Virus record (IMG/VR): IMGVR_UViG_3300029305_011445
Strand: one strand, 5' to 3'
Source of the DNA: a virus
Lineage: Duplodnaviria > Heunggongvirae > Uroviricota > Caudoviricetes
DNA: 64,000 bases
The notes under the pieces were generated by a model. It saw only the letters and a program-made list of their open reading frames with translations, was not told the DNA's origin and searched no databases. The position numbers and the translations under genes were made by a program. This document shows positions 8,910 through 64,000 of this stretch, piece after piece; the stretch's first letter is position 1; each line of letters begins with the position of its first letter.

Positions 8910-10175
8910 TTATCTCTTTGCCTTCCCACAATTGCTACAAAATCTACCTTCATTTTCTGCACCACATTCACAGGTCCATTTAGCTATTGGTGCCGGCTTA
9001 CCACATTCGCTACAATATTTACCTGTATTTGTCGCACCGCATTCACATGACCAAAAGTTCTTTGGTGCTGGCATTGGTTTGCCGCATTCGCTACAGAATT
9101 TACCCGTATTTACATTACCACATTCACATGTCCAACCGTTAGTCGTAGGTGTAGGATTTGTCACAATAGTGTTCTGTGCCGAATTCTGTTCTGCCGGTGT
9201 CATTAGACCGCTTAAACTTCCAAGTGTGCCATTCATAGCATTCATGCCCATACCAACGCCCATGAATCCAGCCATTGCACCACCTTCATTTGATCCGGCG
9301 GCTTTGATACCTTCTGTAATGTTTCTTACAGCCATGCCACGTAATACATTCGGATCGGTACCCATCATAGCACCTTCGTTACGCATATTGATAAGTTTCT
9401 GTGACTCTTCATCGTAAGAAATACTACCGATACCAACGGCCTGAATCTCCATGCCACGCATCTTTGTCCAATCTTCATCCAAGATATTGGCCATGTATTT
9501 ACCAAGTTCTAATGCTTTTGATGACACATGAGAAACTCTTGTCCCATCTGCTGACATCTGATTAATTGCAGACTGTAATGCTTGTAAGAACTCATTGATA
9601 TATTGTTCATTAATTTCTTCGATTTCAACTTTATTTGCGTTTCTTGGAATCACTTCTGCATAAAACTGTAACGGATTCGTAATCTTAATTGAATACGAAC
9701 CATGTGTTCTTAGAAATAGCTCTGCATTATAGAAACTGTCAAAGTAGTTAATCGGATTTCTTGTACCGAATTTGATACCTTTAATTTCCTGCAAATTGAT
9801 ATAGAAAACCTTCTGCATTCTAGGTGTTTCTCCACCAAATTTAATACGATTAAATGCATCTTTTAATGAATCACCAAACTGACCATTAAATAATGATGGC
9901 GTTGATGAATTATCAACCTTGTAATATCCCGGTTCAGCTGTATAGTCAACAATTTTACCACCATCAACAAGCAACATCATTTGATTATCGTAAACATGAA
10001 TCATTGAACCATTTGAAACTGTTACGTCAGTTCCTTTTGTATTTTGTCCTTTTCGAACCAAAACACCATTTGTGAATACGGTTCTTTCACCCATATCGTT
10101 TGGTTCAATTACCTCTAACCAGGTATCGGCAAACGAATCGCCTACTGCGCTTTTAATTGCCTGAATAAGTCCCAT
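8910..10175 (-). CDS. SPFH/band-7 domain protein with four C-terminal zinc-ribbon repeats (YdjI-like)
   Basis: N-terminal SPFH-like domain; C-terminus has four repeats of W(T/S)CECG..N.GK(F/Y)CSECGKP. Confidence 0.7.
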   Translation of the reverse strand: MGLIQAIKSAVGDSFADTWLEVIEPNDMGERTVFTNGVLVRKGQNTKGTDVTVSNGSMIHVYDNQMMLLVDGGKIVDYTAEPGYYKVDNSSTPSLFNGQFGDSLKDAFNRIKFGGETPRMQKVFYINLQEIKGIKFGTRNPINYFDSFYNAELFLRTHGSYSIKITNPLQFYAEVIPRNANKVEIEEINEQYINEFLQALQSAINQMSADGTRVSHVSSKALELGKYMANILDEDWTKMRGMEIQAVGIGSISYDEESQKLINMRNEGAMMGTDPNVLRGMAVRNITEGIKAAGSNEGGAMAGFMGVGMGMNAMNGTLGSLSGLMTPAEQNSAQNTIVTNPTPTTNGWTCECGNVNTGKFCSECGKPMPAPKNFWSCECGATNTGKYCSECGKPAPIAKWTCECGAENEGRFCSNCGKAKR

Positions 10176-10307: not shown

Positions 10308-10718
10308 TTAATAATTAGATTCTGTTTCAGATGCAACAACCGGTTCATATGGAATAAGTTCAAATAATACTTCTGCATCAATTCCATTGATATGAATCAC
10401 TCCTGGCTTTAAATCGTATACAGTATCATTGACTACTGCTACAACTTTTTTGATACTTTTCCATTTGTTTAACAGTCTAATAACATCATATGGATTAGGA
10501 TTCTTTGAAATGCCGCATCCGGAATTACGTACCGGAAATTTATTGCTGCCAGTTACAAGGCACAAACAATTCGGGACTTCTTTTGACATCGTTACATAAG
10601 CTACGGTTCGGTATCGAATACTTTCATTATTTGTAACCTGCATATCGTAACAAATATGACTGTCGCTCCAATCAATGTTTAAAAACTCTTCTCTTGTCAT
10701 AGTTATGACTCCTTTCAT
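10308..10718 (-). CDS. hypothetical protein
   Basis: 136 aa ORF with own promoter motif (10738-10749) and upstream hairpin. Confidence 0.5.
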   Translation of the reverse strand: MKGVITMTREEFLNIDWSDSHICYDMQVTNNESIRYRTVAYVTMSKEVPNCLCLVTGSNKFPVRNSGCGISKNPNPYDVIRLLNKWKSIKKVVAVVNDTVYDLKPGVIHINGIDAEVLFELIPYEPVVASETESNY

Positions 10719-10749: not shown

Positions 10750-10840
10750 ATCCAACAAATAAAAAAGACTCACAACCATCGTTGCAAGTCTTTTTCTGCT
10801 TTCTCTGTTTCATTAAGTTTGTTCACAGCCACTTAATAAA

Positions 10841-12070
10841 TTAAGCAATTTCTACCAAATATCTGGCAGTTAACTGTTCTTCTTTGTAAACGATAATCTC
10901 ATCGTTACGAAGCATTGTACCTGCATGTGCATGCAAACAAGTAGCTCCTGGACAGGTACTCTGCAGTCTATTCCAATCGAAATTGTAATACTTTGGATCA
11001 AAAGAATACACGTCATAAGGTGTCCCATATGCACATTCATGAAGAATCATGAATCCGCTGTTTGCAGTACCCCTGGTCCAATATGACCCCTGTACCGAAG
11101 TATATCCGATAGATTTTCTTGCACGTGGGGCAAAATAAATACCATATCCAAACATTTTACCAGTGATAACAGCATTTGTTGGACGAAGTACTAAACCTGT
11201 TTTTAAAATATTCCAAACATTCTCGTTCCGGGTTCCATGCCAGAGTAATTTAATATCATTATCTGCCATACCATGGTCTGCAACAAATTTCTGGAACCGC
11301 TCTTCCTGTTTCTTATTAACAATGCGCCAAGCATTTTTGTAACGAGATTCATCTTCACCAAGTTCTTTCTTGATACGTTTGATATCCGCATCAGTAACTG
11401 GTGCGATTTCAATACCGAATGCTTCTAAAATAGTGTAATTATGCTCGTACTCATTTTCATCGATATCGGCTTCTTTGCTAACAATAACAACTTGACCGCG
11501 AAGTGTATCGAGCAATGACTGTTCCTTAGCAATAATATTGTTAAAATTTTCGTTGTCTGAAACAAGATGGTCTCGTACGTTACCCATTCGCCTCGGAATT
11601 ACTGCGTACAATTGCAATAACAAATCATTAAATTCTTTAACAGAGTCTACTTTTAATAAAGATTCGATTAACACCTGAGCCTCATCAATCATAGCCTGCG
11701 TTACCTGATTTGCCTGGACTTTGTAATTTGCAGCAATCACCTTTTTCGCATATGCCTGCAAACGTTCTACAATTTCAGCGATTGCTTTGTCATTAATTGG
11801 TAAATACTCATGATCTTTCTGTTTCACATCAGCAACAACATCAGCAATCAGCTCCGATTTATCTACGTAACCCTTCTTTACTTTGCTACGATAGATACTG
11901 TCCCATTCTCTGATTGGTTTTGTAATTGTGGTACAAGTAGAATCGATTCTGCCGTACTTGATTTCAATCACATCACCTTTCGGAGTCATGTCATAATACT
12001 TATTGTTGTTTTCTGCTGTCACCATTACAAGGTGTACCGGACGTAATTCACGTTCCATTTCTCTTCCCAT
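10841..12070 (-). CDS. poly(ADP-ribose) polymerase homolog (WGR + PARP regulatory + PARP catalytic domain)
   Basis: KLLWHGTRNENVWNILKTGL...GKMFGYGIYFA...DEIIVYK aligns residue-for-residue with the PARP1 active site (LLWHGSR...GKGIYFA...YNEYIVY), so the H-Y-E triad is intact; N-terminal YGRI WGR-like region. Confidence 0.85.
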   Translation of the reverse strand: MGREMERELRPVHLVMVTAENNNKYYDMTPKGDVIEIKYGRIDSTCTTITKPIREWDSIYRSKVKKGYVDKSELIADVVADVKQKDHEYLPINDKAIAEIVERLQAYAKKVIAANYKVQANQVTQAMIDEAQVLIESLLKVDSVKEFNDLLLQLYAVIPRRMGNVRDHLVSDNENFNNIIAKEQSLLDTLRGQVVIVSKEADIDENEYEHNYTILEAFGIEIAPVTDADIKRIKKELGEDESRYKNAWRIVNKKQEERFQKFVADHGMADNDIKLLWHGTRNENVWNILKTGLVLRPTNAVITGKMFGYGIYFAPRARKSIGYTSVQGSYWTRGTANSGFMILHECAYGTPYDVYSFDPKYYNFDWNRLQSTCPGATCLHAHAGTMLRNDEIIVYKEEQLTARYLVEIA

Positions 12071-12118: not shown

Positions 12119-12178
12119 ATGAGAGTATTTGAAACAATAAAAAGCCCGGACCATTTCTGATCCGGACCGTCTTTCATT

Positions 12179-13573
12179 TTACGTTGCTTTATTCATTGCA
12201 TTTAACTTCATTGCAACATCATAATAATTGTGATCTTTTTGATTTGCATAAAAATCTAAGATTGCATCAGGAACTTGTCGATCCTGTAAAAATTGAAGAA
12301 TCATATCTTTGATTTCTGACTCTTGTTTGGTTGGATCGAATATGTATGGGATGCGAAGGATGGGAATGCCGTTGTCTTTACAATATTTATTTTTTATACT
12401 GTCTCTATTAACAACTTTTTCAAATGAATATGTTCCAAAATGACGTCTATTTACAAAATGTTGTTCTCCATCATATTCAATAATCAACCTGTCATTTGGT
12501 AAATAAAAGTCAAACGACAAACGTTTTCGATTATTATGTACCACATTAATTGTATACTCAAATTGAAAATCAATATTATTATCTAATAAAAAATTATAGA
12601 TAAACCTTTCGGATTTTGGTGCATTCATATATGGATGTTTTGTTCCTTCAAGTGCTCTATGAGCGACTGTTGTTTCCCACTCTAATATTAAAACTCTATT
12701 TTCAGGATCGGTATATTGAATTCGCCACCATACTTTTTGATTGCTAGACACTGTTACATCTTTTGGTTTTAAATCTCCATTTTTTGTAAGGTGCCACTCT
12801 TTTGCTAAATCAGGTCGAAGCGTCGCTAAATCATTAAAGCCAACCCATACAGCTTGTCCCGTTAAATATGGACAATTTCTATTAAGAATCGTCCTATTCC
12901 CAATCTTAGACTCCCATTCAAAATCAAAATGTTTACCAGTAATTGGATCATCATATGGTAGGTACCACCACACTTTTTGATTCGAACCACATGTTACATC
13001 GCTTGGTTTTAAATTCTCATTCTTTGTAGGGTGCCATTCCATTGCTAAATCAGGACGAAGTGTTGCTAAATCATTAAAGCCAGTCCATACTTCTTTACCT
13101 GAAAGATATGGGCAGCCATTCCCTCGACTTCTATGATTTATTGCAACTTTCCATTCAAAATCAAAGTGCTTACCAGTAATTGGGTCATCATATGGTAAAT
13201 ACCACCATACTTTTTGATTGCTAGACACTGTTACATTTTCAGGTTTTAAATCTCCATTTTTTGTTGGATGCCATTCCATTGCTAAATCAGGGCGAAGTGT
13301 CGCTAAATCATTAAAACCTTTCCACACGGCTTTACCTAAAAGGTATGGACAGCCACTCCCTCGACTTCTATGATTTATTACAGCTTTCCATTCAAAGTCA
13401 AAATGTTTACCGGTAATTGGGTCATCATATGGTAAATACCACCATATCTTTCTACCACTACCCTCTGTTACATCTTCTGGTCTCAAATCACCATTCTTTG
13501 TTGGATGCCACTCTTTTGCCAGTTCTGGATGTGTTTCAGCCAGACTCAACTTTTGGTTCTTTTGCTTTGTCAT
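12179..13573 (-). CDS. zinc-ribbon-repeat protein fused to PD-(D/E)xK nuclease-like domain
   Basis: 3.5 tandem ~78-aa repeats (EWHPTKNGDL...KVWWYLPYDDPITGKHFDFEW...GCPYL.GK.VW.GFNDLATLRPDLA); C-terminal FDFYLPNDRLIIEYDGEQH resembles a PD-(D/E)xK/DUF559-type core. Confidence 0.65.
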   Translation of the reverse strand: MTKQKNQKLSLAETHPELAKEWHPTKNGDLRPEDVTEGSGRKIWWYLPYDDPITGKHFDFEWKAVINHRSRGSGCPYLLGKAVWKGFNDLATLRPDLAMEWHPTKNGDLKPENVTVSSNQKVWWYLPYDDPITGKHFDFEWKVAINHRSRGNGCPYLSGKEVWTGFNDLATLRPDLAMEWHPTKNENLKPSDVTCGSNQKVWWYLPYDDPITGKHFDFEWESKIGNRTILNRNCPYLTGQAVWVGFNDLATLRPDLAKEWHLTKNGDLKPKDVTVSSNQKVWWRIQYTDPENRVLILEWETTVAHRALEGTKHPYMNAPKSERFIYNFLLDNNIDFQFEYTINVVHNNRKRLSFDFYLPNDRLIIEYDGEQHFVNRRHFGTYSFEKVVNRDSIKNKYCKDNGIPILRIPYIFDPTKQESEIKDMILQFLQDRQVPDAILDFYANQKDHNYYDVAMKLNAMNKAT

Positions 13574-14735: not shown

Positions 14736-16937
14736 TTAATTTTCTCTACTTGCGTAAAATGCTCGACGCAATGTGCAAATGTCATCAAGTTCAAGCTGAC
14801 CACTTGTTTCGTTACGATCTTTCATCCATGCGTAAAATTCCTGTGCAAGCGGAATGTCTAATGACACAGATTTCCCGATACAACCATTTTTGAATACCTG
14901 CTCTGATACTTTTCGCATCTGTTTCCAGAAGTTATAGTAATGAAGCTTTACTTTCACCATAAACCCTGTCGCATCTTCTAATACAAATCCTTCAATCTTT
15001 CGACCGTTAAGTTCATAATCCGGATGCATTACTTCTTTGTACCATTTACGGAACTCTGTCCAACTATTGATTTCAATGGCTTTTTCTTTTGGTGTTAACC
15101 CGAAACGATGTGCTACTGCCACCATATCGTTGTATTCATATTTCTTGAATTCCATCTCATTTGATACGATATCAAGTAAGATAAGCTTGCTTTCTGGATA
15201 TTCAATGATATGCGGATCATGTTCCATATCAACGCATTCAAAAACAAATGTTACATCATTTTCTTTGATGAATGATTTCATTGCTTCAAGTGTATCTGCA
15301 GCAACAGTTTTATGTAACATCTCTCTTACCCATCCGGCATAATCGCCTTCAACTGTTGATTTACTTGCAATAAGTAAGTTGTCACCATATTCATCGTAAC
15401 TAACCATGCCTAAGAATCCATTTTCTTTTACGTAACCAATTAATGGATACTGTAAATTCTTTTCTAACGAACTGAATAATGTTTCAGGACGTTCGTTAAC
15501 ATTAAAGAATTTTTCAAACGAGCGCATGCATACCTTGTTTCTAAAAGTGTCAATGAACAAACCTCTTGCTTTACAAGTCTGTTCGTTCCAAACTTTACCG
15601 TAAAATGCTTTTGATGTAAAATTGAATGATGAAATATTGCCAAACTGTTTCTCCTGTACATATGGATTATTACGTAACATAGTGACAAGTTCTTCAATTG
15701 TTTCAGGAACTTTATCTGTCACAATCTTTTCCTGTTTTGGTTCCACTTTTTTGAATACAGTATTTTTTGTTTCAAATGTATGAATACCATCAGAATCAAC
15801 CTGTACACATCTTAAATTGCCACCAAATTCAACTTCATTTTCCAGGTTGTACATACGTTCATTTGCCTGTACTGGAACACCAGTGATATTTCTATGTCCA
15901 TGAATCTGAGTGACAATACATGGGGCTGTTTCTAAGAATGTTTTCGCCACCTTGTCATAATCACTGTAGCGGCCAACACCATGGATCATCTGATCTGTTG
16001 AAATAAGTGTTAAGTTATCCGGTAATGTGCCCAAACCAGCATGTGTTACAAGGAAATATTTGTTTCCATAATGGTAATATGCACACTGTGCAAGTTTGCG
16101 ATAAAACTGTCTCAAGGTCTTTTTGCTAACACCTGCTTCAAGAAGCTGTGGTTTTGTGTTATTTTCAAACTCTTTTGATTTTGCTTCTTTATCATGTGCA
16201 AACAAATTGAGCCATCTTTCATGATTGCCTTCCAACAATAACACATTTTTACGATCCATGATTGTAAACAAGAATTCTAACACTGCTGCATTTTCAATGC
16301 CGCGATCAATGTAATCGCCAGTAAAAATGTAATATTCATCATCCTTGATGCCACCATTTGCGGCTAAATATTCCTGCAGCACAGAATGACATCCATGTAC
16401 ATCTCCAATATGATGAATCTTTTTGTAATGAGACAAATCAATTGGTTTCATCCAAATCGTATCAAGTTCATCCGGTGCAATGACTTTGATACCGGATGGT
16501 ACCTTTTCCGTTTTGAATCGTTCATACATTCTGTCGATTGCATAGTCTGGTACACGTTTTAACTCTTCTCTGAATACATTTCTACGTTTCACTTCTTCAA
16601 TTGGAAGCGTAGTAAAGTCGACAAGATAAATTCTGTAACGATAATCCTGACACAACTGTTTATATCGTGTTAATTCGGATGTTTTAGAATTTGTTGCATC
16701 AATTACTGTAAATGCACCTTTTTTCATACGGAATTCCAGCATTGAAAAAAGTGTTTCCCATGCAATATCAGAAACTCCCTGATCAATACCCATTGTGCCA
16801 TCGAGTTGCATCATTGGACTATTATACATAAGTCTCAATGTATCAGCACATAATGTATATGGTTCTAATCCATGTTCTTTGATCCAAGTGCTCTTGCCAC
16901 ATCCAGGTGCGCCTCGTAAAATTAATAATGTTCTCAT
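14736..16937 (-). CDS. Pnkp-like polynucleotide kinase-phosphatase-ligase (RNA/DNA end-healing and sealing)
   Basis: N-terminal P-loop GAPGCGKST kinase; central calcineurin-like phosphoesterase motifs GDVHG, GDYIDRG, GNHE; C-terminal adenylyltransferase-like domain with KENG (KxDG-like) motif, as in Clostridium thermocellum Pnkp. Confidence 0.8.
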   Translation of the reverse strand: MRTLLILRGAPGCGKSTWIKEHGLEPYTLCADTLRLMYNSPMMQLDGTMGIDQGVSDIAWETLFSMLEFRMKKGAFTVIDATNSKTSELTRYKQLCQDYRYRIYLVDFTTLPIEEVKRRNVFREELKRVPDYAIDRMYERFKTEKVPSGIKVIAPDELDTIWMKPIDLSHYKKIHHIGDVHGCHSVLQEYLAANGGIKDDEYYIFTGDYIDRGIENAAVLEFLFTIMDRKNVLLLEGNHERWLNLFAHDKEAKSKEFENNTKPQLLEAGVSKKTLRQFYRKLAQCAYYHYGNKYFLVTHAGLGTLPDNLTLISTDQMIHGVGRYSDYDKVAKTFLETAPCIVTQIHGHRNITGVPVQANERMYNLENEVEFGGNLRCVQVDSDGIHTFETKNTVFKKVEPKQEKIVTDKVPETIEELVTMLRNNPYVQEKQFGNISSFNFTSKAFYGKVWNEQTCKARGLFIDTFRNKVCMRSFEKFFNVNERPETLFSSLEKNLQYPLIGYVKENGFLGMVSYDEYGDNLLIASKSTVEGDYAGWVREMLHKTVAADTLEAMKSFIKENDVTFVFECVDMEHDPHIIEYPESKLILLDIVSNEMEFKKYEYNDMVAVAHRFGLTPKEKAIEINSWTEFRKWYKEVMHPDYELNGRKIEGFVLEDATGFMVKVKLHYYNFWKQMRKVSEQVFKNGCIGKSVSLDIPLAQEFYAWMKDRNETSGQLELDDICTLRRAFYASREN

Positions 16938-24278: not shown

Positions 24279-26033
24279 CTAAATCTTAAATTTGTTTACT
24301 TCTGTGCTTAATTTTGCAGCAATATTACTACAATTATCAGCTTCTATATTAATATCTGAAACAGAAGTTGTTAAATCAACGGTATGCGAAGCAACATTAC
24401 TGATACCGTTTGCAGTTTCTTCGATAGCAACACTGATTGCTTCGCTATTCTCTTTTAAGCCCTGCATATGAACATTGAGATTTTTGCATTCTTCTGCAAA
24501 AGTATTCATAATACTACTTAAGTGTTTAGCATCACGTTGATAATTTTCACTGGTTGTTAATAACTTATCATATCCAATCATAGCAACAGATTCCATAAAT
24601 GTTAACATTTCCTCTGCCTTTTGAGCCAATTCTGTAACTGTTTGAATAACATCTTCGCTTACGGTTTGGATTTCGGTCGCAGTTTCTGCTGAATGAGTTG
24701 CTAATTTTCCGATTTCACTTGCTACAACTGCAAATCCGCGACCAGCTTCTCCGGCTCTTGCTGCTTCTATTGATGCGTTTAATGATAACAAATTTGTCTG
24801 AGTGGTAATCTCTAAAATATTTTCAGTCATTGTCTTGATATCTTCAACTCGTTTGGACCGTTCAATCATTTCACTTACAGCAACACGCATTGCTTCAGCT
24901 TGTGTTTTCGCATCAATCTGCTCTTTTGTCGCCGTTTCATTAATAGTGTTTGCATTATTAGCGATTTTCAAGGTATTACTTTCTTCAATGCCTGCAGCTT
25001 CCGCAACCTGTTCTACTGATGTAACCACATCTTTAATAGCAGTATCCATCTGCGTCAAGGAAGCACTGATTTCTTCAATTGCAGCACCCATTTGTTCCAT
25101 TGTTGCAGAGACATCTGTGACTCTTGTTTCTGCATCTTTTAATTGTCCCGAAACCGTGTTTGACGATGTATGAAGCTCTGTTGAATTGTCATTAATATTT
25201 ATCATAATTCCGCGAATATAGACTAAAAATTTATTTACGTTATCAGCAATTAATTCTAATTCATCTCCGGTAGCTACATTAATTGTTTGAGTTAAGTCGC
25301 CTTCGTTACTTGCTAATTCGTGTAACTTTTCATTTACTCTCTTCATATTTTTAATGATTCTGTTTACAATTAAATAAACAATGATTGTGGCAACAATAAC
25401 ACCGAGTCCGGATACAGTAATTAATTCGATTACAACAGATTGTATATTATCCTTAATATATGTAGCGTCATAATCACATCCTAAGATGCCAAGTTGATTA
25501 CCTTCGCTATCATAAACTGGAACATAAGATGTGATATAAGCTTTATCACCATCCAATGTAAATTCTGATTCAGATAAGGCTGTTCCATTAAATACAGATA
25601 CCAAATATTCGTAATCTACTTCAAATAATTCTCCGATTTGTGCACGTTCTTCTGAATCTTCATCACTATCGACTCCATAGAATACATCTGTACCATTGGT
25701 ATAAAGAGTATATAAATAAGCGACGTTATATGTATTTTTAATTCTAGTAAGATCTTCCAATACGTCTTTATATTCTTTCGTTTCTTCAGCACCTTTATTT
25801 AATTTACTAAGAGAATCAGTATTAATTGATTTAGAAGCAAATTCAGCAACAATCATAGCTTCTTCACCACCAAGTGTTAAAAAGCCTTCGCTGATTTTAT
25901 AAAATGACTGTAATGTTAACATGGAACATAAAATAATAATGATAATGTTGATTGGTATAAGAATCTGCCATCTGATACTTAATTTTCTGCTCCCGTTATT
26001 CATTCGATGAAAAATACTTTTCTTTTTATTCAT
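24279..26033 (-). CDS. methyl-accepting chemotaxis protein with periplasmic sensor
   Basis: two TM helices around a sensor domain, then HAMP and signalling domain with [31 protein letters not shown]. Confidence 0.85.
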
Positions 26034-26086: not shown

Positions 26087-27865
26087 TCAATCCAATTTAA
26101 ATTTACGAACTTCATTTGTAAGTTCATCTGCAATCGCCTTATTATCCAATGCTGTTTTTTGAATTTCTGATACATCTGCATTTATCGCAGTTGTTGTATT
26201 TGCGATGCTGTTAACACCAGTTGTACTTTCTTCAATTGCAATATTGATCGCATTCATGTTTTCTAAGATCTTATGAATTGCCTGCTCAATATAATCCGTA
26301 GAATTGCAAAAAGCTTCCATCTGACGTCCCATTGTTTCAACATCTGTTTTATATGCAATACCTGTGTCTTTTAATTCATCGTATCCTTTCATTGCAACTT
26401 CATCTAAAAATGTAAGCATTCTTTCAGTTTGTTCGGCTAAAAGTTCTACAGCTGCAATTACTTCGTCGCTAACTTTTTTAATTTCATTCGCTGCATCCGC
26501 AGAAGTGTTTGCGAGTTTTCCAATTTCTGTTGCAACAACAGCAAATCCGCGACCGGATTGTCCGGCACGCGCGGCTTCGATACTTGCATTTAATGCTAAA
26601 AGATTTGTTTGGCTTGCAATTTCCAAAATATTCTCTGTTAATTTTGAAATTTGTGTTACAGCGTTGGAGCGTTCAAGACTTTCCTTGACATCAATTGTTA
26701 ATTGATCTGAAAGTTCTTTTGCTTTCGTAATATTTTCATCAACCTGTGACTCAATATTTGAAGCCTTTTTAACCGTTGCACGTGCGTCCATTTCACTCTG
26801 TTTTGCATATTTGGCAACATCGCCGGTTGTATCTGATACCTGTTTAATTAACGAACTAATTTCCACAATTGATGCACTCGTTTCTTCCATTGCAGCACTC
26901 ATCTGTTCCATTGTAGAAGAAACATCTGCGATTTCACTTTCTGAATCTGTAACCTTTTCTGTGATTGCAACTACAGAATCAGATAATTTAAGAGAATCAT
27001 CGCGAATACTAACCATAATAGCTCTAATATATGACAACAATGTGTTTACGTTTCCTGCAATTAATTCTAATTCATCGCCCGAATGAATATCTAAAGATTG
27101 TGTTAAGTCTCCGTTGTTGTTAGCAAGTTCACATATTTTTTCATTTACTTGGCGAATATTTTTAATGATGCCTTTTACGATTAAGCAAATAATTAATGAA
27201 TCAAATAGCAATGTTACAACTAGCACAAGAACCAATCTCGAAATCATTTGATATCTTATAGTCAAAATATTAGATGCGTCATAATCAATACATAATACTG
27301 CAGTTACATTTTCATCTGCATCAATAATTGGCTGATATACGGATAACAAATGTACATCATCTCCAAGATTTTTAATTACGGGGCTATTTGCTACAGTTCC
27401 GGAAAACGCTTTATTGATTAAATCAGAATCAACTAAATTCGTAGCAGCAGTTCCTACTTGTTTCGATGAATCAATATCGCTATTTAATCCATAAACAATT
27501 GAACCATTATTCGTTTTGTGTAAAGTATAAAACTGTTTCAAGTGTCCCTGTTCTAATAACATTTGTAGCGTTGTATTTATTGAAATAGCGTTTTCTTCAC
27601 TTAACAAGTTTTCATAATTAAGAGCTTCTGCGTCAATCAAATCTGACGCAATGGCCGCTATAGATTTTGCATTTTCAATTGCTAGATCACGATATTTATC
27701 GTTATAACCTTTTACGCTACTGTAACCAACTACAAAACAACCTGATATTACAACTAAAATAACAGGAACGAGTATTTTAAGTTGCAACGAAAATCGTCTT
27801 ACCTTTTGTTTTTCTTTTTTATCCCTCATTTTCTTTCTCTCCACTAAAAATTTTACTAAATTCAC
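26087..27865 (-). CDS. methyl-accepting chemotaxis protein (paralog)
   Basis: same architecture; [32 protein letters not shown]; start overlaps stop of upstream small ORF (ATGA). Confidence 0.85.
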
Positions 27866-29462: not shown

Positions 29463-30332
29463 ATGATTATTACAACAAATACATCAAAGGGTGGCGAAAC
29501 AAAAACAAGCAGTACTGTCACGTTCGGTTCAATATTAGCTGTTGCCGGATATAAAGTGTTACTTGTTGATTCTGATCCGCAGCAAAATTTAACATATTTA
29601 TGTGCGACAGAAGATACAAATGTGAACCCTCCAATTGTTATTTATGATTTACTATTGCGAAGTTCAGTTGATGATAGTGAGCTAAAAGATGCAATTGTGA
29701 CAACAAAAATAAAAAACATGGATATGATTCCAGCAAATGATAGTTTGTATTTAGCACCATATCATTTATACGACAAAGTAGTTCACGAAGGCGAGACACA
29801 AAGTATATTAAATTTACGAAACAACTTAATGCGCATTCAAGAAATATTCGAATATGATTACATACTTATTGACACTCCACCTACGAAATCATATGCAGTT
29901 AATGCAACACTTGCTGCAGCAGATTATGTTGTTACCGGTATTTCACCGGATAATTTATCGTGGCAGGGTTTATCTGCGATGATACAAGCAGTTGATGACA
30001 ATAATGTTACTTATGCAAGAGATACGCAAGTTGCAGGTGTATTTTTAACAAGAGTCAACCCTCGTACAAATCGATACCGAGAAATGAGTGCTGGTTACAA
30101 ACAACTCTTAGGAGATATTTTCTTAAATAGTTTTGTTCGTACAAATGAAGAAATGGGTAAAGCGAACTCTTATATGGTTCCTATTGTATTGTTTAATAAA
30201 CGATGCGAAGTGATCGAGGACTATATTAATGTAATGATTGAATTAGGATTGCTTGACACAAATGATTGGCATTATCTCGAATTGCGGAAGTATTTAAGAA
30301 GCAACAATAGGCAGAAAGAAAGCGAGGATTAA
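29463..30332 (+). CDS. parA: ParA/MinD-family partition ATPase
   Basis: deviant Walker A-like SKGGETKTSS near N-terminus, LLVDSDPQ, ParA-like size (289 aa), immediately followed by parB. Confidence 0.75.
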   Translation: MIITTNTSKGGETKTSSTVTFGSILAVAGYKVLLVDSDPQQNLTYLCATEDTNVNPPIVIYDLLLRSSVDDSELKDAIVTTKIKNMDMIPANDSLYLAPYHLYDKVVHEGETQSILNLRNNLMRIQEIFEYDYILIDTPPTKSYAVNATLAAADYVVTGISPDNLSWQGLSAMIQAVDDNNVTYARDTQVAGVFLTRVNPRTNRYREMSAGYKQLLGDIFLNSFVRTNEEMGKANSYMVPIVLFNKRCEVIEDYINVMIELGLLDTNDWHYLELRKYLRSNNRQKESED

Positions 30333-30335
30333 TAT

Positions 30336-31433
30336 ATGGCAGCAAACAGACAACCTATGATGCCGGGAATGACAAGTATCGGACAAATTGGAACAAGAGG
30401 TACCGGGTTAGGACAAATTCAGGCACAGAAAGCATCTGGTATCAATTATATTCCATACGATAATATTATCCCAAATAAGAAAAATAAACGATATGACCAA
30501 ATTGACATTGAATCGTTAAGTTATTCTATTGAAGATAGAGATTTGCTTCATAATTTAGTTGTTACGCCTTCCGAAACAAGTGGTATGTATGATTTAATAA
30601 GTGGTGAGCGAAGATGGCGCGCAATTGGACTGCTTAGAGATAGAAATCCAAAACGTTTTGAAGAATTATTTCCAGGTGGACTCATCCCATGTAAAGTTCA
30701 AGTACTCGATAATGTGGATGATGAAATTTCTTTGATAGTTGCAAACACTGAAGTTCGAAATATTAGTGTTAAAGATAAATTAAATGATGTAAGGCGGTTG
30801 GCAGAATTATACGCAATCAAATATGAAAATGAACCAAAGACAAATGTTTCTGAAATGATTGCAAAGCAATTAGCAATGTCAGAACGTCAGATTCGTAAAT
30901 ATATGAGTCTTGACAAACTAGTTCCAGAATTAATGCAAGCATTTGATGATGATATTTTAAATATCGAAGCAGCAAGTAAAATTGCTCTTCTAGGAGAGAC
31001 AGAACAATTGTATCTTGTTGATATATTAAACGAAACAGAAAAAATTACTGAAGATGATATTGTTGCTGCAAAGGCGTTACAGGTTCAAAAAGAGACTGCG
31101 TTAAAAGAAATCGATACAAAGCAGGAAGAAATTGCAGCATTAGAAGAAATGAAATCCATCGCAAAAACTACAGATGAAACTGAGTTCATTAATACTAGAA
31201 TTGAAGAACGTTTAAAAGCAATTGATGATACGAAGCAAAAATTATCTGATAGACAAATGCGAAAGCTTCGAAAAGTTGCGAAGGCTGGTAAAATTGTAGA
31301 TCAAACAACAGAAGCGATTGATAAACTCCAAAATATGATTGAACCAATCAAATCTGATACGACAATTATTCTTCGTCTTGAGATGCTACAAATGAAATTG
31401 AACCGATTGATTGAACAAGTAAAAAAAGAATAA
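30336..31433 (+). CDS. parB: ParB-family partition protein
   Basis: ParB/Srx N-domain GERRWRAIGLL; coiled-coil C-terminus; 3 nt after parA. Confidence 0.8.
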   Translation: MAANRQPMMPGMTSIGQIGTRGTGLGQIQAQKASGINYIPYDNIIPNKKNKRYDQIDIESLSYSIEDRDLLHNLVVTPSETSGMYDLISGERRWRAIGLLRDRNPKRFEELFPGGLIPCKVQVLDNVDDEISLIVANTEVRNISVKDKLNDVRRLAELYAIKYENEPKTNVSEMIAKQLAMSERQIRKYMSLDKLVPELMQAFDDDILNIEAASKIALLGETEQLYLVDILNETEKITEDDIVAAKALQVQKETALKEIDTKQEEIAALEEMKSIAKTTDETEFINTRIEERLKAIDDTKQKLSDRQMRKLRKVAKAGKIVDQTTEAIDKLQNMIEPIKSDTTIILRLEMLQMKLNRLIEQVKKE

Positions 31434-31475: not shown

Positions 31476-32510
31476 TTAACGGTTCTTAAATTTCTGTTCC
31501 AATCTTTCTTTTGCTTCATTAACTGTCTGAGAAATATTAGAAAGATTTTTTGTAACATTACTGCGCTCCGGTTCGTCACAACACTCATCACTATGAGTTT
31601 CGTCCACTTTCGATTTCGGAGTTGTGTCAATATCTTTTGTGATATTCAACACTTCACCAATGTATGAAAGGTTTGATGCGCTTTCTGTCAAATTTGTAGG
31701 AATAATAAGTTTTGTAGCGCGACCATCTCCCAATGCTTTTAATGCATCAAGCTGTCTCAATTGCATTACAGCCTGGTTTACAGGAACTGAAGTTAATTTA
31801 CTCAAGCCTTCTGCTTCGGCTTCGTATTTGAGACGAATACTCTCTGCCTCACCAGTTGCTCTTGCGATAGCGGCGTCACGTTCTGCTTCTGCCTTGAGAA
31901 TCATTGCTTGCTTATCGCCTTCTGCACGCATTATAGATGCCTGTTTATGAGCTTCTGCTTCAAGCAATGTCTGTCGTTTTTCACGTTCTGCACGCATCTG
32001 TTTTTCCATGGATTCTTGAATATCTTTTGGTGGAATAATATTTTTCAATTCTACACGATTAACTTTGATACCCCATTTATCTGTTGCTTCGTCCAAGATT
32101 TGACGCATTTTTACATTAATAACGTCTCTGGATGTTAAAGTTTCGTCTAATTCTAATTCGCCGATAAGGTTTCGTAATGTAGTGGCAGTAAGTGTTGCTA
32201 ATGCTTCGATCGGATTATTAACACCGTATGTGTAAAGCTTTGGATCAAAAACATTGTAATATACAACAGTATCAATCTGCATTGTAACATTGTCTTTTGT
32301 GATTACCGGCTGTGGCGGGAAATCGCCTAACTGTTCTTTTAACGAGACACGCTTAGCTACTCGATTAAGAACAGGGATCATAAAATGTAAACCATTGTTC
32401 CAGGTTGCTTGATATGATCCTAAAAATTCAATTACATAAGCATTTGCTTGCGGTACAATTTTAATGCAACTACATACAAGCAAAATCAAAAGAATAACAA
32501 CATAACCCAT
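31476..32510 (-). CDS. SPFH/band-7 (stomatin/HflC-like) membrane protein
   Basis: N-terminal TM, SPFH core, EAEA-rich coiled coil; variant promoter motif 32578-32592. Confidence 0.8.
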   Translation of the reverse strand: MGYVVILLILLVCSCIKIVPQANAYVIEFLGSYQATWNNGLHFMIPVLNRVAKRVSLKEQLGDFPPQPVITKDNVTMQIDTVVYYNVFDPKLYTYGVNNPIEALATLTATTLRNLIGELELDETLTSRDVINVKMRQILDEATDKWGIKVNRVELKNIIPPKDIQESMEKQMRAEREKRQTLLEAEAHKQASIMRAEGDKQAMILKAEAERDAAIARATGEAESIRLKYEAEAEGLSKLTSVPVNQAVMQLRQLDALKALGDGRATKLIIPTNLTESASNLSYIGEVLNITKDIDTTPKSKVDETHSDECCDEPERSNVTKNLSNISQTVNEAKERLEQKFKNR

Positions 32511-34383: not shown

Positions 34384-36462
34384 TTAATGTTCTGGATCGA
34401 AGCTTTCTGATATAGGAACATCTGGCTCCAAAGGATTCTTTTCTTGCGATTTTAAAAAGTCATCATATGCATCTTTAGCACAGATGTACATGTATCTTTC
34501 CTCATCCGGTAGCGATTCATAATAATCATTTGCTAAAAGATGATATTCTTCATTCCCTAGTAACTCTATAAACTTCGGAGAAATTTTATATTGTTCTAAT
34601 TTATCAATGGAGTCTTGTACATTTCTTGTTTCCAGGTTTTTCTTTACAAGAATTAATCGTTCTCTGGATGTTAAATCTGGATATTCTTCTTTTATCTTTT
34701 CTGTTTCGTATCTAAAAAGTTCATTCTCTAAATGTTTGTTGCCGTACTCACTCAACTCTTTTGCAAACTTATGATTCACGATCAATTCGTTACCAAAAGT
34801 TTTATAGTAAAATTCACGATATAAGCTTTCAACGTGTTTATATTCTTTTTCAGTTACCAATCCTTCACATTCCTGAATAAATTCTTCAAGCGTAAATACG
34901 GCTGATCCCGTATTTGTTGGATACGGTTCATCTTTTCTGTTTGTAGGTAAGTTGTCTATAAACTTTACACCGTATAAGGAACCACCAATATGGTTTGCAT
35001 CTTTTACAGCAACAGAATCTTCAAGTAGCAGTTCTGGATGTTTATCAAAAAATTTACGTGCATCTCCAGTTGCTGCTTCGATAATGATTCCGCGACCATA
35101 AAGAACATCTAATTCATGAAAGATAGAGCGTTTCATTTGACTATAATCCCAAGAACCATCACGATTTTGTTTTAAACGATAATCGCAGCTACAAGAACTG
35201 TCTGCAACATAAAACGACATTCCTGCATCGATTAAATCTTCACCAATAGTTGAAAGCTTTGAGGCAAAATCAAGCGGATTCTTCGCTGAAACAATAATAC
35301 AATGTCCGGATGGGGATTTTTCAAAGCTTTGTGATTTGTGCATGTAGCCACCGATGGTGTATTGTTCTGATTCCGGAAGTGGAACCTCGTTAAATACAAT
35401 ATTTCCATTTTCTAATCTGCTCCGACGTTCACTTGTAATATGTTTAATTGAAGATGCTTGGATTCCCTGCATATATTTATGGCAAAATGCTTCATATCGA
35501 ACGCGTGCAATATCGCGCTCCGTAATAATTATTTCATCAGGTTGAACCCAAACAATAAATGACTTTGGTTGCATTAAATGAATCCCAGCTTTATAAAAAT
35601 CGTTACGGAATTTCACGAGATTGCGAAGTTGTTTTTCATTCCAACATTCATTGTGGTTAACAATATTTGTGCCTGATTTCTGAAACTCTAAAGGTACAAT
35701 ATTATTATCCTGAAGAATTGATAATTCGCCAATAAAAAGTGCATAGACGTAATTCATTACTTTCTTTTCATCTTCAGGCGTTAGTAATTTATGTAACGCT
35801 GGTTTAATAATTTCATCACAGGTTCTTTGATATCTGTCGTACGAAAAATTTAATTCTCCAAACGGTGCAAAACATGCAATCAACGCTGCAATTTTTTCAT
35901 ATGGATTGGACCGACTATTAATAAAATCAATACGTTCTTGCCAACCTTTCATTTCTTTGTCACTAATCTGGTTTCTCATCCAAGGAAATGTAAGAGCAAT
36001 TCGTTCTAAATAATCTGGATGAAATGGCCAATATGTAAGAGAGAAACATTCAAGGAGATCTTTAATCTTAAAAGGTTTATAACCAGCTAGATTATCAATA
36101 AAGGCTTCGTTTCGGAAATTCATAGTCATCATGTCATCTTTAGGAGAACGACAATAATCTTCAGAAAACTCAAGGCGAGCGTAAGATAATGGATGCATCC
36201 AATATTTTTCACCTTTGTAATAATTTGTTAGATGTTCTGTTTTCGCAAAATTAAAGAAGTCCTTATACATCTGATCCACTTGTTTGAAACGATGCCGGTC
36301 ATCTTCTGGAATAAATAATTCACCAGCTGGTCGCATATCTCTGCGTAATAATTTATATGCGCCATATTCTGTGAGCTCAAGGCTTGTCTCTTTTTTCTTT
36401 TCGCTTGCTTCATCTGGTTTTGTACCGAGTGCGTTTTTTATTGATTGAAATATTCCAGCCAT
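34384..36462 (-). CDS. large hypothetical protein (692 aa)
   Basis: long ORF; upstream has only a terminator hairpin, no consensus motif. Confidence 0.6.
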   Translation of the reverse strand: MAGIFQSIKNALGTKPDEASEKKKETSLELTEYGAYKLLRRDMRPAGELFIPEDDRHRFKQVDQMYKDFFNFAKTEHLTNYYKGEKYWMHPLSYARLEFSEDYCRSPKDDMMTMNFRNEAFIDNLAGYKPFKIKDLLECFSLTYWPFHPDYLERIALTFPWMRNQISDKEMKGWQERIDFINSRSNPYEKIAALIACFAPFGELNFSYDRYQRTCDEIIKPALHKLLTPEDEKKVMNYVYALFIGELSILQDNNIVPLEFQKSGTNIVNHNECWNEKQLRNLVKFRNDFYKAGIHLMQPKSFIVWVQPDEIIITERDIARVRYEAFCHKYMQGIQASSIKHITSERRSRLENGNIVFNEVPLPESEQYTIGGYMHKSQSFEKSPSGHCIIVSAKNPLDFASKLSTIGEDLIDAGMSFYVADSSCSCDYRLKQNRDGSWDYSQMKRSIFHELDVLYGRGIIIEAATGDARKFFDKHPELLLEDSVAVKDANHIGGSLYGVKFIDNLPTNRKDEPYPTNTGSAVFTLEEFIQECEGLVTEKEYKHVESLYREFYYKTFGNELIVNHKFAKELSEYGNKHLENELFRYETEKIKEEYPDLTSRERLILVKKNLETRNVQDSIDKLEQYKISPKFIELLGNEEYHLLANDYYESLPDEERYMYICAKDAYDDFLKSQEKNPLEPDVPISESFDPEH

Positions 36463-41269: not shown

Positions 41270-42781
41270 TTGATGAAAAAGAATTATGGCAGAATTATTA
41301 CTGCTGCATTAATGGTGTTGACATTAAGCGTATTTACTGGATGTGGTTCTTTTTGGTCGTTAGACTTTTTAAGCAAAGTACCAACGGCAGAGGAATTATT
41401 AGATCAGTCTTATGAAGTAACGCAGGACACCTATCTTGACGCAGATATGAAGATGGACATCAAAGCACTTATGGATATGAGTGGATTGATGGGTGAGTCA
41501 TCTGGATCGAGTGCAACAATGGAAATGGCAATCTGTTTAGATGCTAATATTGTCAGTGACAATACGACTCAGCACATGAAGGGTGACATGGACGTTAATG
41601 TTTTTGGAATGAATATGCAAATTCCGGTAGAAACATATACCGCTATCCATGATGATACCGCTACAGTTTTTGATTATAGCGCTGATTATGAAATATGGAC
41701 AATGGATGAAACGAGCATTGAAGATTCGTCATTTATTGATTTAATGAGTATTATTAAAGGATTACCGGCTGAGATGTTTGAATCTTATGAGCTAAAAGAG
41801 CTTGAAGATAAAGATGCAGATTACATCATTACAGGTGTAATTGATATGGCGAGTCTTATGAATTTATTAGGATCTGATACAGAGTCATTACTTGGTACTA
41901 CTGAATTAACAACAGATGCATTCGACGTTAGTAAGCTGGTAATGAATGCAACAATCGTTTTTGATAAAGAAACTTTAATGCCTGTTTCGTATGCGTTTTA
42001 TATCGATCCAGAATCTGTAACAGTAGAAGACGCTGGTGTTGAAAAATTTGATATTGAAATTGTTATCAATGATGTAAATGAAACTGGAAAAGTTATAATA
42101 CCAGACGATGTGATTGATGCAGCAATTGGTAATTCAATAGATTACGAATCAGAATCAGAACCGGATATCATAATTGAAACCGGAGATGGTGTTGTTTTAG
42201 TCGAACCTGAATCAGAAGATGTTAATCCGGAAATTGTTTTGGATCAGGATGTTGATGGAATCGATAACTGGACTACATATGAATTCAATGTAAATGGAAC
42301 AACAATGCTGCTTCCTTGTACGTATGCAGAATTTAAAAATGCAACAGGATGGGCGATGAAACCTGCAGATGAAAAATCATATTTAGAAGGTGGTTATTAT
42401 ACATCTGTTAATCTTTACAACGAAGCTGAGGATTTAATGTGTTATATCAGTATTGCAAATCCTACAGATGGTGATCTTTGTTACGCAGATGCAACAGTGA
42501 TGAAAATTAATCAATCATCATATAATGTTGAGCAGGGTTCACATGTAATTACATTCCCGTATAATTTAAAAGTTGGTATGGAAATTACTCCTGATATGCT
42601 CAAGACGTTAATTGGTGAACCATCTGATACATATGAATATCTTGACAATCCAGATTATCAATCGTATACATATACTTGGAACGAGCATGAAAGATATATC
42701 AATGATAGTTTTGAAGTCAATATTGTAAATAATGTTATTGAAGAAATTGAATTAAGTGCTGAAAGTTATGCATTCCAGTAA
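41270..42781 (+). CDS. acidic lipoprotein, unknown function
   Basis: MMKKNYGRIITAALMVLTLSVFTGCGS lipobox; promoter motif 41222-41233; terminator 42789-42816. Confidence 0.7.
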   Translation: MMKKNYGRIITAALMVLTLSVFTGCGSFWSLDFLSKVPTAEELLDQSYEVTQDTYLDADMKMDIKALMDMSGLMGESSGSSATMEMAICLDANIVSDNTTQHMKGDMDVNVFGMNMQIPVETYTAIHDDTATVFDYSADYEIWTMDETSIEDSSFIDLMSIIKGLPAEMFESYELKELEDKDADYIITGVIDMASLMNLLGSDTESLLGTTELTTDAFDVSKLVMNATIVFDKETLMPVSYAFYIDPESVTVEDAGVEKFDIEIVINDVNETGKVIIPDDVIDAAIGNSIDYESESEPDIIIETGDGVVLVEPESEDVNPEIVLDQDVDGIDNWTTYEFNVNGTTMLLPCTYAEFKNATGWAMKPADEKSYLEGGYYTSVNLYNEAEDLMCYISIANPTDGDLCYADATVMKINQSSYNVEQGSHVITFPYNLKVGMEITPDMLKTLIGEPSDTYEYLDNPDYQSYTYTWNEHERYINDSFEVNIVNNVIEEIELSAESYAFQ

Positions 42782-44008: not shown

Positions 44009-44028
44009 TTAAAAAGGTGGGTTTAAAA

Positions 44029-51210: not shown

Positions 51211-51263
51211 TCACTATATATACTTCGTGCGAGGTATATACCTTGTAAAGTATATACCTTATT
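51211..51263. repeat. right inverted-repeat arm bounding the ori-like module, immediately upstream of the relaxase promoter
   Basis: see left arm; followed by a second AAAGTATATACCTT copy and then promoter motif 51280-51291. Confidence 0.75.
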
Positions 51264-63813: not shown

Positions 63814-64000
63814 TTATTCTCCTTTATCGATATCCTTTTTCATTTCCGGATCCGGAGTTCCTTCCTGGCTTGTATGAGTTGATTCCAAAACATCATCACG
63901 ATAATCTCGTAAATATTCCATTGAATAAGGAGTGAGATTCATAGTTTGAGCTTTGTACGTAAATGGTTGTCCACATTCATCGCATGCAGCAGTTAAATCA
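63814..64000 (-). CDS. 3' end of a gene running off the window end (zinc-ribbon-containing C-terminus)
   Basis: open frame from window end to TAA at 63814-63816: ...LTAACDECGQPFTYKAQTMNLTPYSMEYLRDYRDDVLESTHTSQEGTPDPEMKKDIDKGE. Confidence 0.4.
   Translation of the reverse strand, partial: DLTAACDECGQPFTYKAQTMNLTPYSMEYLRDYRDDVLESTHTSQEGTPDPEMKKDIDKGE

Follow-up and report, generated by a model that had tools for sequence, protein, structure and literature searches.

The locus and its carrier element

The window, the whole 64,000-nucleotide stretch of DNA analysed here, contains a gene whose product, judged from its sequence, is a PARP-type ADP-ribosyltransferase of the WGR-helical-ART type of prokaryotes and phages (Table 1). 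Terminator-like hairpins lie on both sides of this gene, by which it is predicted to be transcriptionally insulated, and an AGGAG ribosome-binding site is situated between the upstream hairpin and the ATG. Its carrier is extrachromosomal and uncultured, spans at least 158 kb (contigs of 157,780 and 135,915 bp; JGI 3300031555 Ga0318466_10002512) and comes from a Clostridia host of low GC content. This element possesses plasmid-like ParAB and Mob_Pre-like relaxase genes, together with phage-like nucleotide-metabolism genes, homing endonucleases and its own sigma factors. No phage structural genes were detected in the 82 kb of the element examined, a scan for tRNAs found none, and PHROGs, searched with 18 proteins left unassigned in the window and its right flank, yielded just two weak matches of 'unknown function'. 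The element is without a cultured relative, as judged by megablast of the 12 kb around the PARP gene against cultured phages, which gave no match. A large unassigned protein encoded at 34384-36462 has nothing similar to it in phages or plasmids.

Table 1. Features of the PARP locus and the window end, with positions in the window
Feature	Position	Strand	Details
PARP gene	10841..12070	-	409 aa, ATG start; ORF list with profile and fold matches
WGR domain	11846..12040	-	aa 11-75; NNNKYY at 21-26, Y39-G40-R41 replacing W-G-R
Helical regulatory-like domain	11498..11788	-	aa 95-191; counterpart of PARP1 HD / PARP_reg
ART catalytic domain	10844..11431	-	aa 214-409; H278, G279, Y312, K319, S320, Y323, E391
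Catalytic codon H278	11237-11239	-	
Catalytic codon Y312	11135-11137	-	
Catalytic codon E391	10898-10900	-	
Terminator-like hairpin	12143..12168	-	between PARP and the upstream homing-endonuclease-like gene
Terminator-like hairpin	10761..10796	-	45 nt 3' of the PARP stop codon
SSB gene start	63814..64000	-	truncated by the window end; adjoins PARG

An earlier note on this DNA described the PARP as sitting with end-processing enzymes, a description that fits the gene map only loosely. The distances from PARP are 2.7 kb for the Pnkp-ligase (a kinase-phosphatase-RNA ligase fusion encoded upstream), 10 kb for UvrD and 27 kb for the DHH/RecJ protein, and hairpins bracket the PARP gene itself. When gene context was counted within ±10 kb over 65 dereplicated groups, a Pnkp-ligase was found near PARP in two (the window's and one other), and it is absent from a 77%-identical syntenic relative that retains the UvrD / PIN-PhoH / PARP backbone. 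Family-wide linkage of PARP to Pnkp-ligase, UvrD, PIN-PhoH or SPFH genes was rejected, save for that one further Pnkp-ligase case. Because its immediate neighbours are unconserved across the family, context is a weak guide to the function of the window copy.

Domain architecture and active site

Profiles, alignment, family and fold matches agree that the gene encodes a bona fide PARP homolog with a WGR domain on a mobile element, as first proposed from the letters of the sequence. The Pfam PARP catalytic profile (PF00644) matches residues 245-408 far above its cutoff (E = 1.9e-22; 80.2 bits, cutoff 26.7) and also matches 20 of 20 relatives, while the phrog_23333 profile covers the protein at full length (E 3e-59). 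Profile comparison with the PDB matched the HD and ART of PARP1 end to end (E 9e-20). The AF2 model (pLDDT 77) has WGR-HD-ART chains of PARP1 and PARP2 as its top Foldseek matches. The motifs earlier likened to the PARP1 active site are present (LLWHGTR at 275-281, GKMFGYGIYFA at 304-314 and LRNDEIIVYK at 387-396), and in alignment with human and chicken PARP1 'llwhgtr' stands against 'llwhgsr', 'tgkmfgygiyfa' against 'tgymfgkgiyfa' and 'mlrndeiivy' against 'sllyneyivy'. Careful alignment retains the H-Y-E triad, with H278, Y312 and E391 equivalent to H862, Y896 and E988 of PARP1; among the other NAD-site residues, G279 corresponds to G863, K319 to K903, S320 to S904 and Y323 to Y907. All seven are invariant among 20 relatives of 53-77% identity. 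M306 (the M890 equivalent) and K319 are conserved in the relatives' alignment, and Asn389 occupies the position of the PARP1 acceptor-site residue Tyr986. The product is very probably a catalytically competent PARP-family enzyme.

On the window protein alone, the Pfam WGR profile scores 18.4 bits, under its 22-bit cutoff; across the family it matches 20 of 20 members at E ≤ 0.01 (best 3.2e-8). An N-terminal profile places NNNKYY and YGRV on the 'NNNKYY' and 'WGRVG' of the PARP2 WGR, the AF2 model folds residues 12-65 into a four-stranded sheet and a helix, and whole-chain fold matches take in WGR-containing chains. The WGR assignment is therefore made despite the sub-cutoff score. By contrast with WGR, which was recovered at family level, the Pfam PARP_reg profile suggested alongside it matched none of the 20 family members. 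Phmmer and profile alignments nonetheless continue through the PARP1 HD (query 119-245 on a PARP1 catalytic fragment), and five helices are modelled in the region assigned to it. This predicted helical domain agrees with one modelled for a Clostridiales clade (PMC5966428).

A PARG on the same element

The earlier statement that no PARG or macrodomain gene accompanies the PARP holds for the 64 kb window, in which profile searches found neither, and fails for the element. A gene for a bacterial-type PARG begins 843 nt past the window end on the plus strand, at window-equivalent 64,843-65,646 (12726-13529 of the overlapping locus L113, which is 100% identical to the window across an 11,883 nt overlap), next to the SSB gene. 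Its product matches Pfam PF10021 (PARG_cat_microb) and, in the PDB, the PARGs of D. radiodurans (E 3.4e-26) and T. curvata (E 3e-15). The PARG motif reads NPGGMFLEGSIAQEE, with the catalytic QEE intact and GGM where the canonical form has GGG. By sequence, one replicon thus encodes both a putative writer (PARP) and a putative eraser of poly(ADP-ribose) (PAR). The two genes are about 53 kb apart, with no co-transcription; that they act as a functional pair we infer from one circumstance, their co-residence on the element.

In the 82 kb of the element examined no macrodomain was seen. With the C1 macrodomain HMM, the window yielded no match (best E 0.11), and there was none in flanking loci L111 and L113 or the nearest relatives, L109 and L110. 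The neighbouring ORF 10308..10718, previously singled out as a possible macrodomain or PARG, gave no signal with Pfam, PHROGs, PADLOC or the C1 HMM (hhalign probability 0.2%) and was rejected as a hidden eraser; no homolog of it lies near other PARPs of the family, and its single-sequence AF2 model (pLDDT 39) is unusable for fold comparison. Window ORFs of 136, 145 and 150 aa were likewise considered as counterparts of the relatives' 139-145 aa partner and lack similarity to it. In the 77%-identical relative, the gene preceding PARP encodes 179 aa; it matched the macrodomain HMM only marginally (E 0.03), has no PHROG match and was not accepted as a macrodomain.

Relatives and the macro-PARP sister clade

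Bacterial PARPs had been called rare, which is at odds with the metagenomic record: database matches with E ≤ 1e-5 number 4192, at least 120 distinct metagenomic clusters have 54% identity or more, 68 IMG/VR loci carry family members and a PHROG family is dedicated to them. Bacterial and phage WGR-PARPs were catalogued between 2005 and 2018 and are already known, two of them with in vitro activity. The family resides overwhelmingly on viral and plasmid contigs; the closest named database entries, P0086 and P0102, are at most 57% identical to the window PARP.

In a sister clade (L001-L064 and L075-L084), PARPs 48-57% identical to the window's occur on viral contigs of gut Clostridia, 100-200 kb long. 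Here a TARG1-type macrodomain gene (for example L012 9547-9984), directly upstream, overlaps the PARP start (median spacing -11 nt) in 31-32 of the 65 groups. The pair lies in a DnaB-primase-PolIII-ERCC4-LigA module, one order being DnaB-primase-PD(D/E)XK-PolIII alpha-ERCC4-LigA-macro-PARP. This macro-PARP pair appears to be a new pattern. Its PARPs share the length and domains of the window PARP, and its contigs derive from Clostridia MAGs and from metagenomes, in two cases the very JGI samples that gave the window's contig. The window lineage differs in lacking the macrodomain, in placing PARP after UvrD / PIN-PhoH and in having a distal PARG instead. More broadly, PARP has a ligase for DNA or RNA no more than 10 kb away in 19 of 65 groups, or in 14 if the count is limited to the 39 whose flanks are complete. 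Cellulophaga phage has the gene order CCA-NTase-PARP-x-DNA ligase, and in Butyrivibrio pCY360 PARP is followed by a helicase. One unrelated viral contig, of 182 kb, carries a macro-less PARP (49% identical) and, 3 kb upstream of it, a 50%-identical Pnkp-ligase.

Comparison with known PARPs

The window PARP resembles the Clade 1.2 Clostridiales PARPs (Garcia-Saura et al. 2018; PMC5966428), which share its WGR and PARP catalytic domains, Firmicutes origin, H-Y-E triad and Tyr for Trp in the W-G-R motif, and in which PARP_reg is likewise invisible to Pfam and a helical domain is modelled. However, Clade 1.2 members are found in isolate genomes, whereas the window PARP belongs to an uncultured ParAB-bearing element. 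CdPARP of Clostridioides difficile CD160 and HaPARP of Herpetosiphon aurantiacus have the same three-part core and triad, and a bacterial-type PARG in the genome. Both synthesize PAR in vitro when activated DNA is in the reactions, which HaPARP has been shown to need, and their PAR is reversed by their PARGs (PMC5966428; PMC8120803). The PARP inhibitors olaparib and rucaparib are active on CdPARP. The two enzymes differ from the window PARP in belonging to Clade 2, with a Pfam-recognizable PARP_reg, and the CD160 genome carries an additional MacroD, for which the examined part of the window element has no macrodomain counterpart.

Human PARP2, PARP3 and PARP1 residues 518-1014 share the order WGR-HD-ART and the overall fold (Foldseek TM 0.65-0.66 for the PARP model against 4dqy_C and 4opx_C) and the NNNKYY and (W/Y)GRV motifs, but are only 16-21% identical to the window PARP. 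The latter is without zinc fingers, a BRCT or an N-terminal tail, has a five-helix domain shorter than the human HD and differs in how insertions are arranged between Y323 and E391; bacteria are not expected to have HPF1. Phage PARPs (phrog_23333; Cellulophaga phi4:1 and phi17:2, Xanthomonas XacN1 and Klebsiella phages) are 24-34% identical to it and are similarly found in large mobile genomes, often adjacent to ligases or nucleic-acid repair enzymes, whereas the window element has plasmid partition and relaxase-like genes and no structural genes in the part examined.

Predicted activity and role

By analogy with PARP1/2, HaPARP and CdPARP, the WGR domain would bind a DNA nick or end and so release the enzyme from the autoinhibition exerted by its helical domain. 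The H-Y-E site, supplied with NAD+, would then ADP-ribosylate the PARP itself and nearby proteins, most likely with PAR, and the PARG would strip the polymer, leaving a transient mark. Most likely, the enzyme regulates how the element replicates, repairs or processes nicks in its own DNA, since relatives sit in replication and repair modules with ligases. Taken as a whole, this explanation of an active, DNA-break-activated, reversible PARP serving the element's own DNA metabolism may be right or wrong with about equal likelihood; its domain architecture, catalytic residues, family membership, PARG and gene contexts are observed, and its DNA activation, poly over mono activity, targets and role are inferred. 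A target or in vivo function is known for no prokaryotic or phage PARP (PMC8120803).

The window PARP is predicted to build PAR, and this seems the probable outcome, one strengthened by the PARG of the same element, an enzyme known to act on the ribose-ribose bond of PAR. The triad is necessary but insufficient for elongation, since PARP3 has H-Y-E and yet is a mono-transferase. PARP4 also combines H-Y-E with mono-transferase activity, its PDB entry calling it a 'mono-ADP-ribosyltransferase'. A strict mono-ADP-ribosyltransferase like PARP3 would further accord with Asn389 in place of the acceptor-site Tyr986 and with the sister clade's partner, a hydrolase of the type that acts on terminal ADP-ribose. 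That reading is nevertheless unlikely: K319 and M306 are conserved, both of the bacterial H-Y-E PARPs that have been assayed synthesize PAR (PMC5966428), and TARG1-type enzymes, including a bacterial macrodomain that removes PAR from proteins, also release PAR chains (PMC6397177).

The acceptor might instead, or in addition, be a nucleic-acid terminus, with phosphorylated DNA or RNA ends of the element or host capped by ADP-ribose and the erasers and Pnkp-ligase restoring ligatable ends. Human PARP1-3 act on DNA ends, and PARG, TARG1, MacroD2 and ARH3 reverse the modification (PMC8053099; PMC6397177); the sister clade's TARG1-type partner is of the same macrodomain class as the DNA-acting DarG (PMC6397177), ligases recur near PARP, and a Pnkp-ligase lies upstream both here and beside the 49%-identical macro-less PARP. 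Such capping is rather improbable given the rarity of the Pnkp-ligase linkage, its absence from the 77%-identical relative and the insulation of PARP by hairpins, and sequence features cannot tell protein from nucleic-acid acceptors. It is also improbable that the enzyme is a host-takeover or counter-defence effector that ADP-ribosylates host proteins, in the manner of phage T4 Alt/ModA/ModB, or consumes or redirects NAD+. Host RNA polymerase and translation factors are common targets of phage ARTs, Iyer et al. have proposed that phage PARPs resemble these ARTs but transfer chains (PMC7824862), and both the mostly viral and plasmid distribution of the family and the element's own sigma factors would suit such an effector; yet the conserved WGR domain, a predicted break sensor, and the conserved, putatively autoinhibitory helical domain would be superfluous in a constitutive toxin, and relatives' PARPs lie in replication modules beside ligases, not among early takeover genes. 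Least plausible, and very improbable, is the toxin of a toxin-antitoxin or abortive-infection module resembling DarT/DarG, with the hydrolase as antidote. In the sister clade, the overlap of the upstream macrodomain ORF with the PARP start makes for an antitoxin-first, translationally coupled layout, and the macrodomain of the DarG antitoxin is of the same ALC1/TARG1-type clade (PMC6397177). Against this, the window has no hydrolase adjacent to PARP, so that a toxin would be left unguarded and lethal, and in relatives the macro-PARP pair is surrounded by genes for phage replication rather than lying in a defence island. PADLOC 2.0 had no match for PARP, PARG, ORF136, the DUF4379 protein, the SPFH protein or the Pnkp-ligase, its sole matches being generic GajB/UvrD ones for the helicase, and on this ground a catalogued anti-phage defence system was rejected.

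Significance

The window locus alone adds little, because its family, architecture and triad have been described before. Its interest lies in the comparative set: close relatives number in the hundreds, on large contigs of Clostridia phages and plasmids; a translationally coupled TARG1-type eraser in a replication-ligase module accompanies PARP in half of the dereplicated groups, and the window lineage has a PARG beside SSB. A bolder and doubtful reading is that PARP plus eraser constitutes a widespread, exchangeable cassette of large gut and rumen Clostridia elements, in which the eraser is swapped between lineages (the overlapping TARG1-type macrodomain in the phage clade, the distal PARG in this plasmid-like element) and the substrate is possibly nucleic-acid ends, with ADP-ribose caps coupled to ligases and Pnkp. 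If capping were true, the element's replication intermediates would be protected or timed by it. The compact, 400-residue, HPF1-independent PARPs of this family are candidates for biochemistry, and mobile-element DNA metabolism is a place to seek the ancestral role of break-sensing PARPs. The cassette, if real, would provide the first physiological role for prokaryotic PARPs and a tractable system for studying how the break-sensing PARPs of eukaryotes arose.

Catalytic domain, family and architecture

The window protein is a PARP, as proposed from the sequence alone in an earlier note. Residues 245-408 are assigned to the PARP catalytic family (Pfam; E 1.9e-22; 80 bits against a cutoff of 26.7), and the motifs quoted in that note are present in the ORF and fall on PARP1 as described there (HMMER). 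In the same alignments, H278, Y312 and E391 are equivalent to the PARP1 triad H862, Y896 and E988, while G279, K319, S320 and Y323 correspond to G863, K903, S904 and Y907; none of these residues varies among 19 aligned relatives (53-77% identity). The profile alignment with PARP1 reaches the final residue of both proteins, placing 'mlrndeiivy' opposite 'sllyneyivy'.

The WGR domain of the window PARP alone scores 18.4 bits, under the Pfam cutoff of 22, but WGR is matched by all 20 aligned family members at E≤0.01 (best 3.2e-8). In an N-terminal-only profile, the family-invariant NNNKYY and YGRV align with 'NNNKYY' and 'WGRVG' of the human PARP2 WGR, and the top PDB match is a Bacteroides WGR protein; Tyr replacing Trp is the norm among bacterial PARPs (PMC5966428). 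Of the profiles named in the earlier note, only that of the helical regulatory domain (HD; Pfam PARP_reg) matches none of the 20 members. Sequence and profile alignments nevertheless extend across the PARP1 helical domain, and the AlphaFold model (pLDDT 77, pTM 0.71) comprises a WGR sheet and helix (12-65), five helices (95-191) and a catalytic (ART) domain (214-409). Its top Foldseek matches are PARP1/PARP2 WGR-HD-ART chains on DNA breaks (4dqy_C, 4opx_C (TM 0.65-0.66), 6x0l), with alignments spanning ~475 columns. Such an organisation is the published one of 'Clade 1' bacterial PARPs, which combine WGR and catalytic domains, with the helical domain visible in models only (PMC5966428).

The PARP family is not rare in metagenomes, and the rarity that the earlier note ascribed to bacterial PARPs was overstated. 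The window PARP is a full-length match to PHROG family phrog_23333 (E 3e-59), a large protein database yields 4192 matches at E≤1e-5, with an identity of at least 54% in each of the 120 best clusters, and 68 related PARP loci are present in IMG/VR, for the most part on 100-200 kb contigs. Among GTDB genomes, relatives belong to Clostridia (Lacrimispora, Ruminococcus, Lachnospiraceae) and to Bacteroidota MAGs. By tblastn, annotated PARPs turn up in phages of Cellulophaga, Klebsiella, Xanthomonas and Stenotrophomonas (24-34% identity), and 22 plasmids carry them too, Butyrivibrio proteoclasticus pCY360 among them. Bacterial and viral PARPs have stood in catalogues since 2005-2014 (PMC1266365; PMC4245714), PARPs of phages have been noted (PMC7824862), and HaPARP and CdPARP perform PAR synthesis in vitro that is reversed by PARG (PMC5966428). 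In view of these homologs and literature, the window PARP therefore belongs to an already known type.

ADP-ribose erasers

No PARG, macrodomain or ARH gene lies within the 64 kb window, in agreement with the earlier note on the first two, but for PARG this does not hold for the element. The right flank of the contig (L113), reached via a window-encoded protein and sharing with the window an 11,883 nt overlap of 100% identity, encodes a bacterial-type PARG 843 nt beyond the window end, adjoining SSB and HD-domain genes and ~53 kb from the PARP. It matches the PARGs of Deinococcus radiodurans (E 3.4e-26) and Thermomonospora curvata (E 3e-15) and retains the catalytic QEE in NPGGMFLEGSIAQEE, with GGM instead of GGG. 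The element thus encodes both writer and eraser.

Relatives were compared through 106 PARP loci, whose ORFs were all clustered and which dereplicate to 65 PARP groups at 85% identity. In 31 of the 65 groups, an ORF cluster of ~145 aa lies directly upstream of the PARP on the same strand, overlapping its start (median -11 nt); a more sensitive HMM (E<1e-4, ±10 kb) detects a macrodomain in 32. This partner belongs to the TARG1/OARD1-type macrodomains (human TARG1, 4j5r, E 5e-25; Pfam Macro 22.7 bits) and keeps the Lys and Asp aligned to catalytic K84/D125 of TARG1. No description of the macro-PARP pairing was found in the literature searched, which reports bacterial TARG1-type macrodomains to be scarce; one of them strips PAR from proteins (PMC6397177). 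Groups with the partner are all members of the 48-57% identity clade and lie on viral contigs of 100-200 kb; their module reads DnaB-primase-PD(D/E)XK-PolIII alpha-ERCC4-LigA-macro-PARP. It is absent from the window's sub-clade (60-100% identity; L109 and L110, the closest relatives) and from the 37-44% Bacteroidota clade. An ARH-type glycohydrolase occurs near the PARP in five groups.

Genomic neighbourhood and carrier element

The linkage to end-processing enzymes drawn in the earlier note was too strong, as window neighbours are not conserved with PARP across groups save in one case: an IMG/VR viral contig of 182 kb that is otherwise unrelated (L059) carries a 50%-identical Pnkp-ligase, 3 kb upstream of its 49%-identical PARP. 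The window's own Pnkp-ligase has no recognisable Hen1 partner. More broadly, a DNA or RNA ligase lies ≤10 kb from the PARP in 19/65 groups, Cellulophaga phage phi17:2 has the order CCA-NTase-PARP-x-DNA ligase, and a helicase follows the PARP on pCY360. In Bacteroidota loci of Saprospiraceae and Cytophagales, the PARP is directly followed by a second protein, which either has its own WGR (Pfam E 1e-6) or is shorter and has an N-terminus in common with the former.

The PARP is flanked on both sides by terminator-like hairpins, so that it looks like a stand-alone cassette in the element; G+C around it (0.36) equals that of the remainder of the window. The DUF4379 gene directly upstream, with the upstream one of these hairpins following it, probably represents a selfish homing-endonuclease insertion; the C-terminal domain of its product matches homing/HNH endonuclease PHROGs. 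The 77%-identical syntenic relative (L109) keeps the backbone ParB-ParA / sigma-UvrD-PIN-PhoH-...-PARP and lacks the chemoreceptors, Pnkp-ligase and DUF4379 gene; two of the three chemoreceptor genes are inserted between sigma factor and UvrD by comparison. The SPFH protein encoded two genes downstream of the PARP bears three C-terminal CxxC...CxxC zinc-ribbon repeats.

The PARP protein is found unchanged on JGI contigs of 157,780 and 135,915 bp. Its carrier is regarded here as plasmid-like or a phage-plasmid, an uncultured element from a low-GC Clostridia host. PHROGs detect no phage structural genes in the window and flank sequence read, and no tRNA genes were found. The closest ParB relatives are Clostridia plasmid ParBs (30-36% identity), and the left flank (L111) carries a dUTPase and a nucleotidyltransferase near the anaerobic ribonucleotide reductase NrdD, which is split by an endonuclease gene. 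With its relaxase-like protein, ParA/ParB, phage-like nucleotide-metabolism genes and homing endonucleases, the element may be a phage-plasmid. The large unassigned window proteins have no match in cultured phages or plasmids, including the 692 aa protein by tblastn.

Features of the window, its flanks and related PARP loci
Feature	Location	Strand	Details
PARP	window 10841..12070	-	409 aa; ATG start; AGGAG ribosome-binding site
Terminator-like hairpins	window 12168-12143; 10796-10761	-	PARP's own strand
DUF4379 protein	window 12179-13573	-	464 aa; four DUF4379 treble-clef zinc-finger repeats
Polynucleotide kinase-metallophosphatase-T4 Rnl1-type RNA ligase fusion (Pnkp-like)	window 14736-16937	-	733 aa
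SPFH/Band-7 proteins	window 8910-10175; 31476-32510	-	
Methyl-accepting chemotaxis proteins	window 24279-26033; 26087-27865; 44017-45639		
ParA/ParB pair	window 29463-31433	+	
ORFs of 692, 625, 503 aa	window 34384-36462; 36578-38455; 41270-42781		no Pfam or PHROG match
Mob_Pre-type relaxase-like protein	window 51206-52630	+	
Sigma-70 factors	window		two
RecU, RecJ-like DHH protein, UvrD, PIN-PhoH	window		
BspA-LRR protein	window		
PARG	L113 12726-13529 (window-equivalent 64,843-65,646)		267 aa; PF10021
NrdD, two ORFs	L111 15653-18780		broken by HNH_3 endonuclease gene
Macrodomain ORFs (examples)	L012 9547-9984; L001 9569-9988		loci L001-L064, L075-L084
Pnkp-ligase	L059 4531-6717		
WGR protein after PARP (example)	L091 3526-4473		315 aa
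Shorter protein after PARP (example)	L107 7170-7484		104 aa

Proposed function

The PARP would act as an NAD+-dependent ADP-ribosyltransferase that senses DNA breaks, its product probably being poly-ADP-ribose, and the mark would be taken off by the element's own PARG. Its fold, triad and WGR domain, the co-resident PARG and the gene contexts of relatives are observed, while DNA activation, chain elongation, targets and role are inferred. Alternatively, it could be a strict mono-transferase: Asn389 sits at the PARP1 Y986 position, and PARP3 provides a precedent. That the element also carries a PARG speaks indirectly for poly-ADP-ribose.

The targets may also differ. ADP-ribosylation of nucleic-acid ends could be coupled to Pnkp or ligases, and a role as a host-takeover effector has likewise been considered (PMC7824862). 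Membership of a DarTG-like toxin-antitoxin or defence module finds no PADLOC support, and no antidote gene is adjacent to the PARP in the window. Break-responsive ADP-ribosylation, the reading preferred here, would instead work for the element itself, in its replication, repair or nick processing. What makes this PARP of interest is above all the pattern of erasers across its family, along with the question of what prokaryotic PARPs do physiologically in vivo (PMC8120803).
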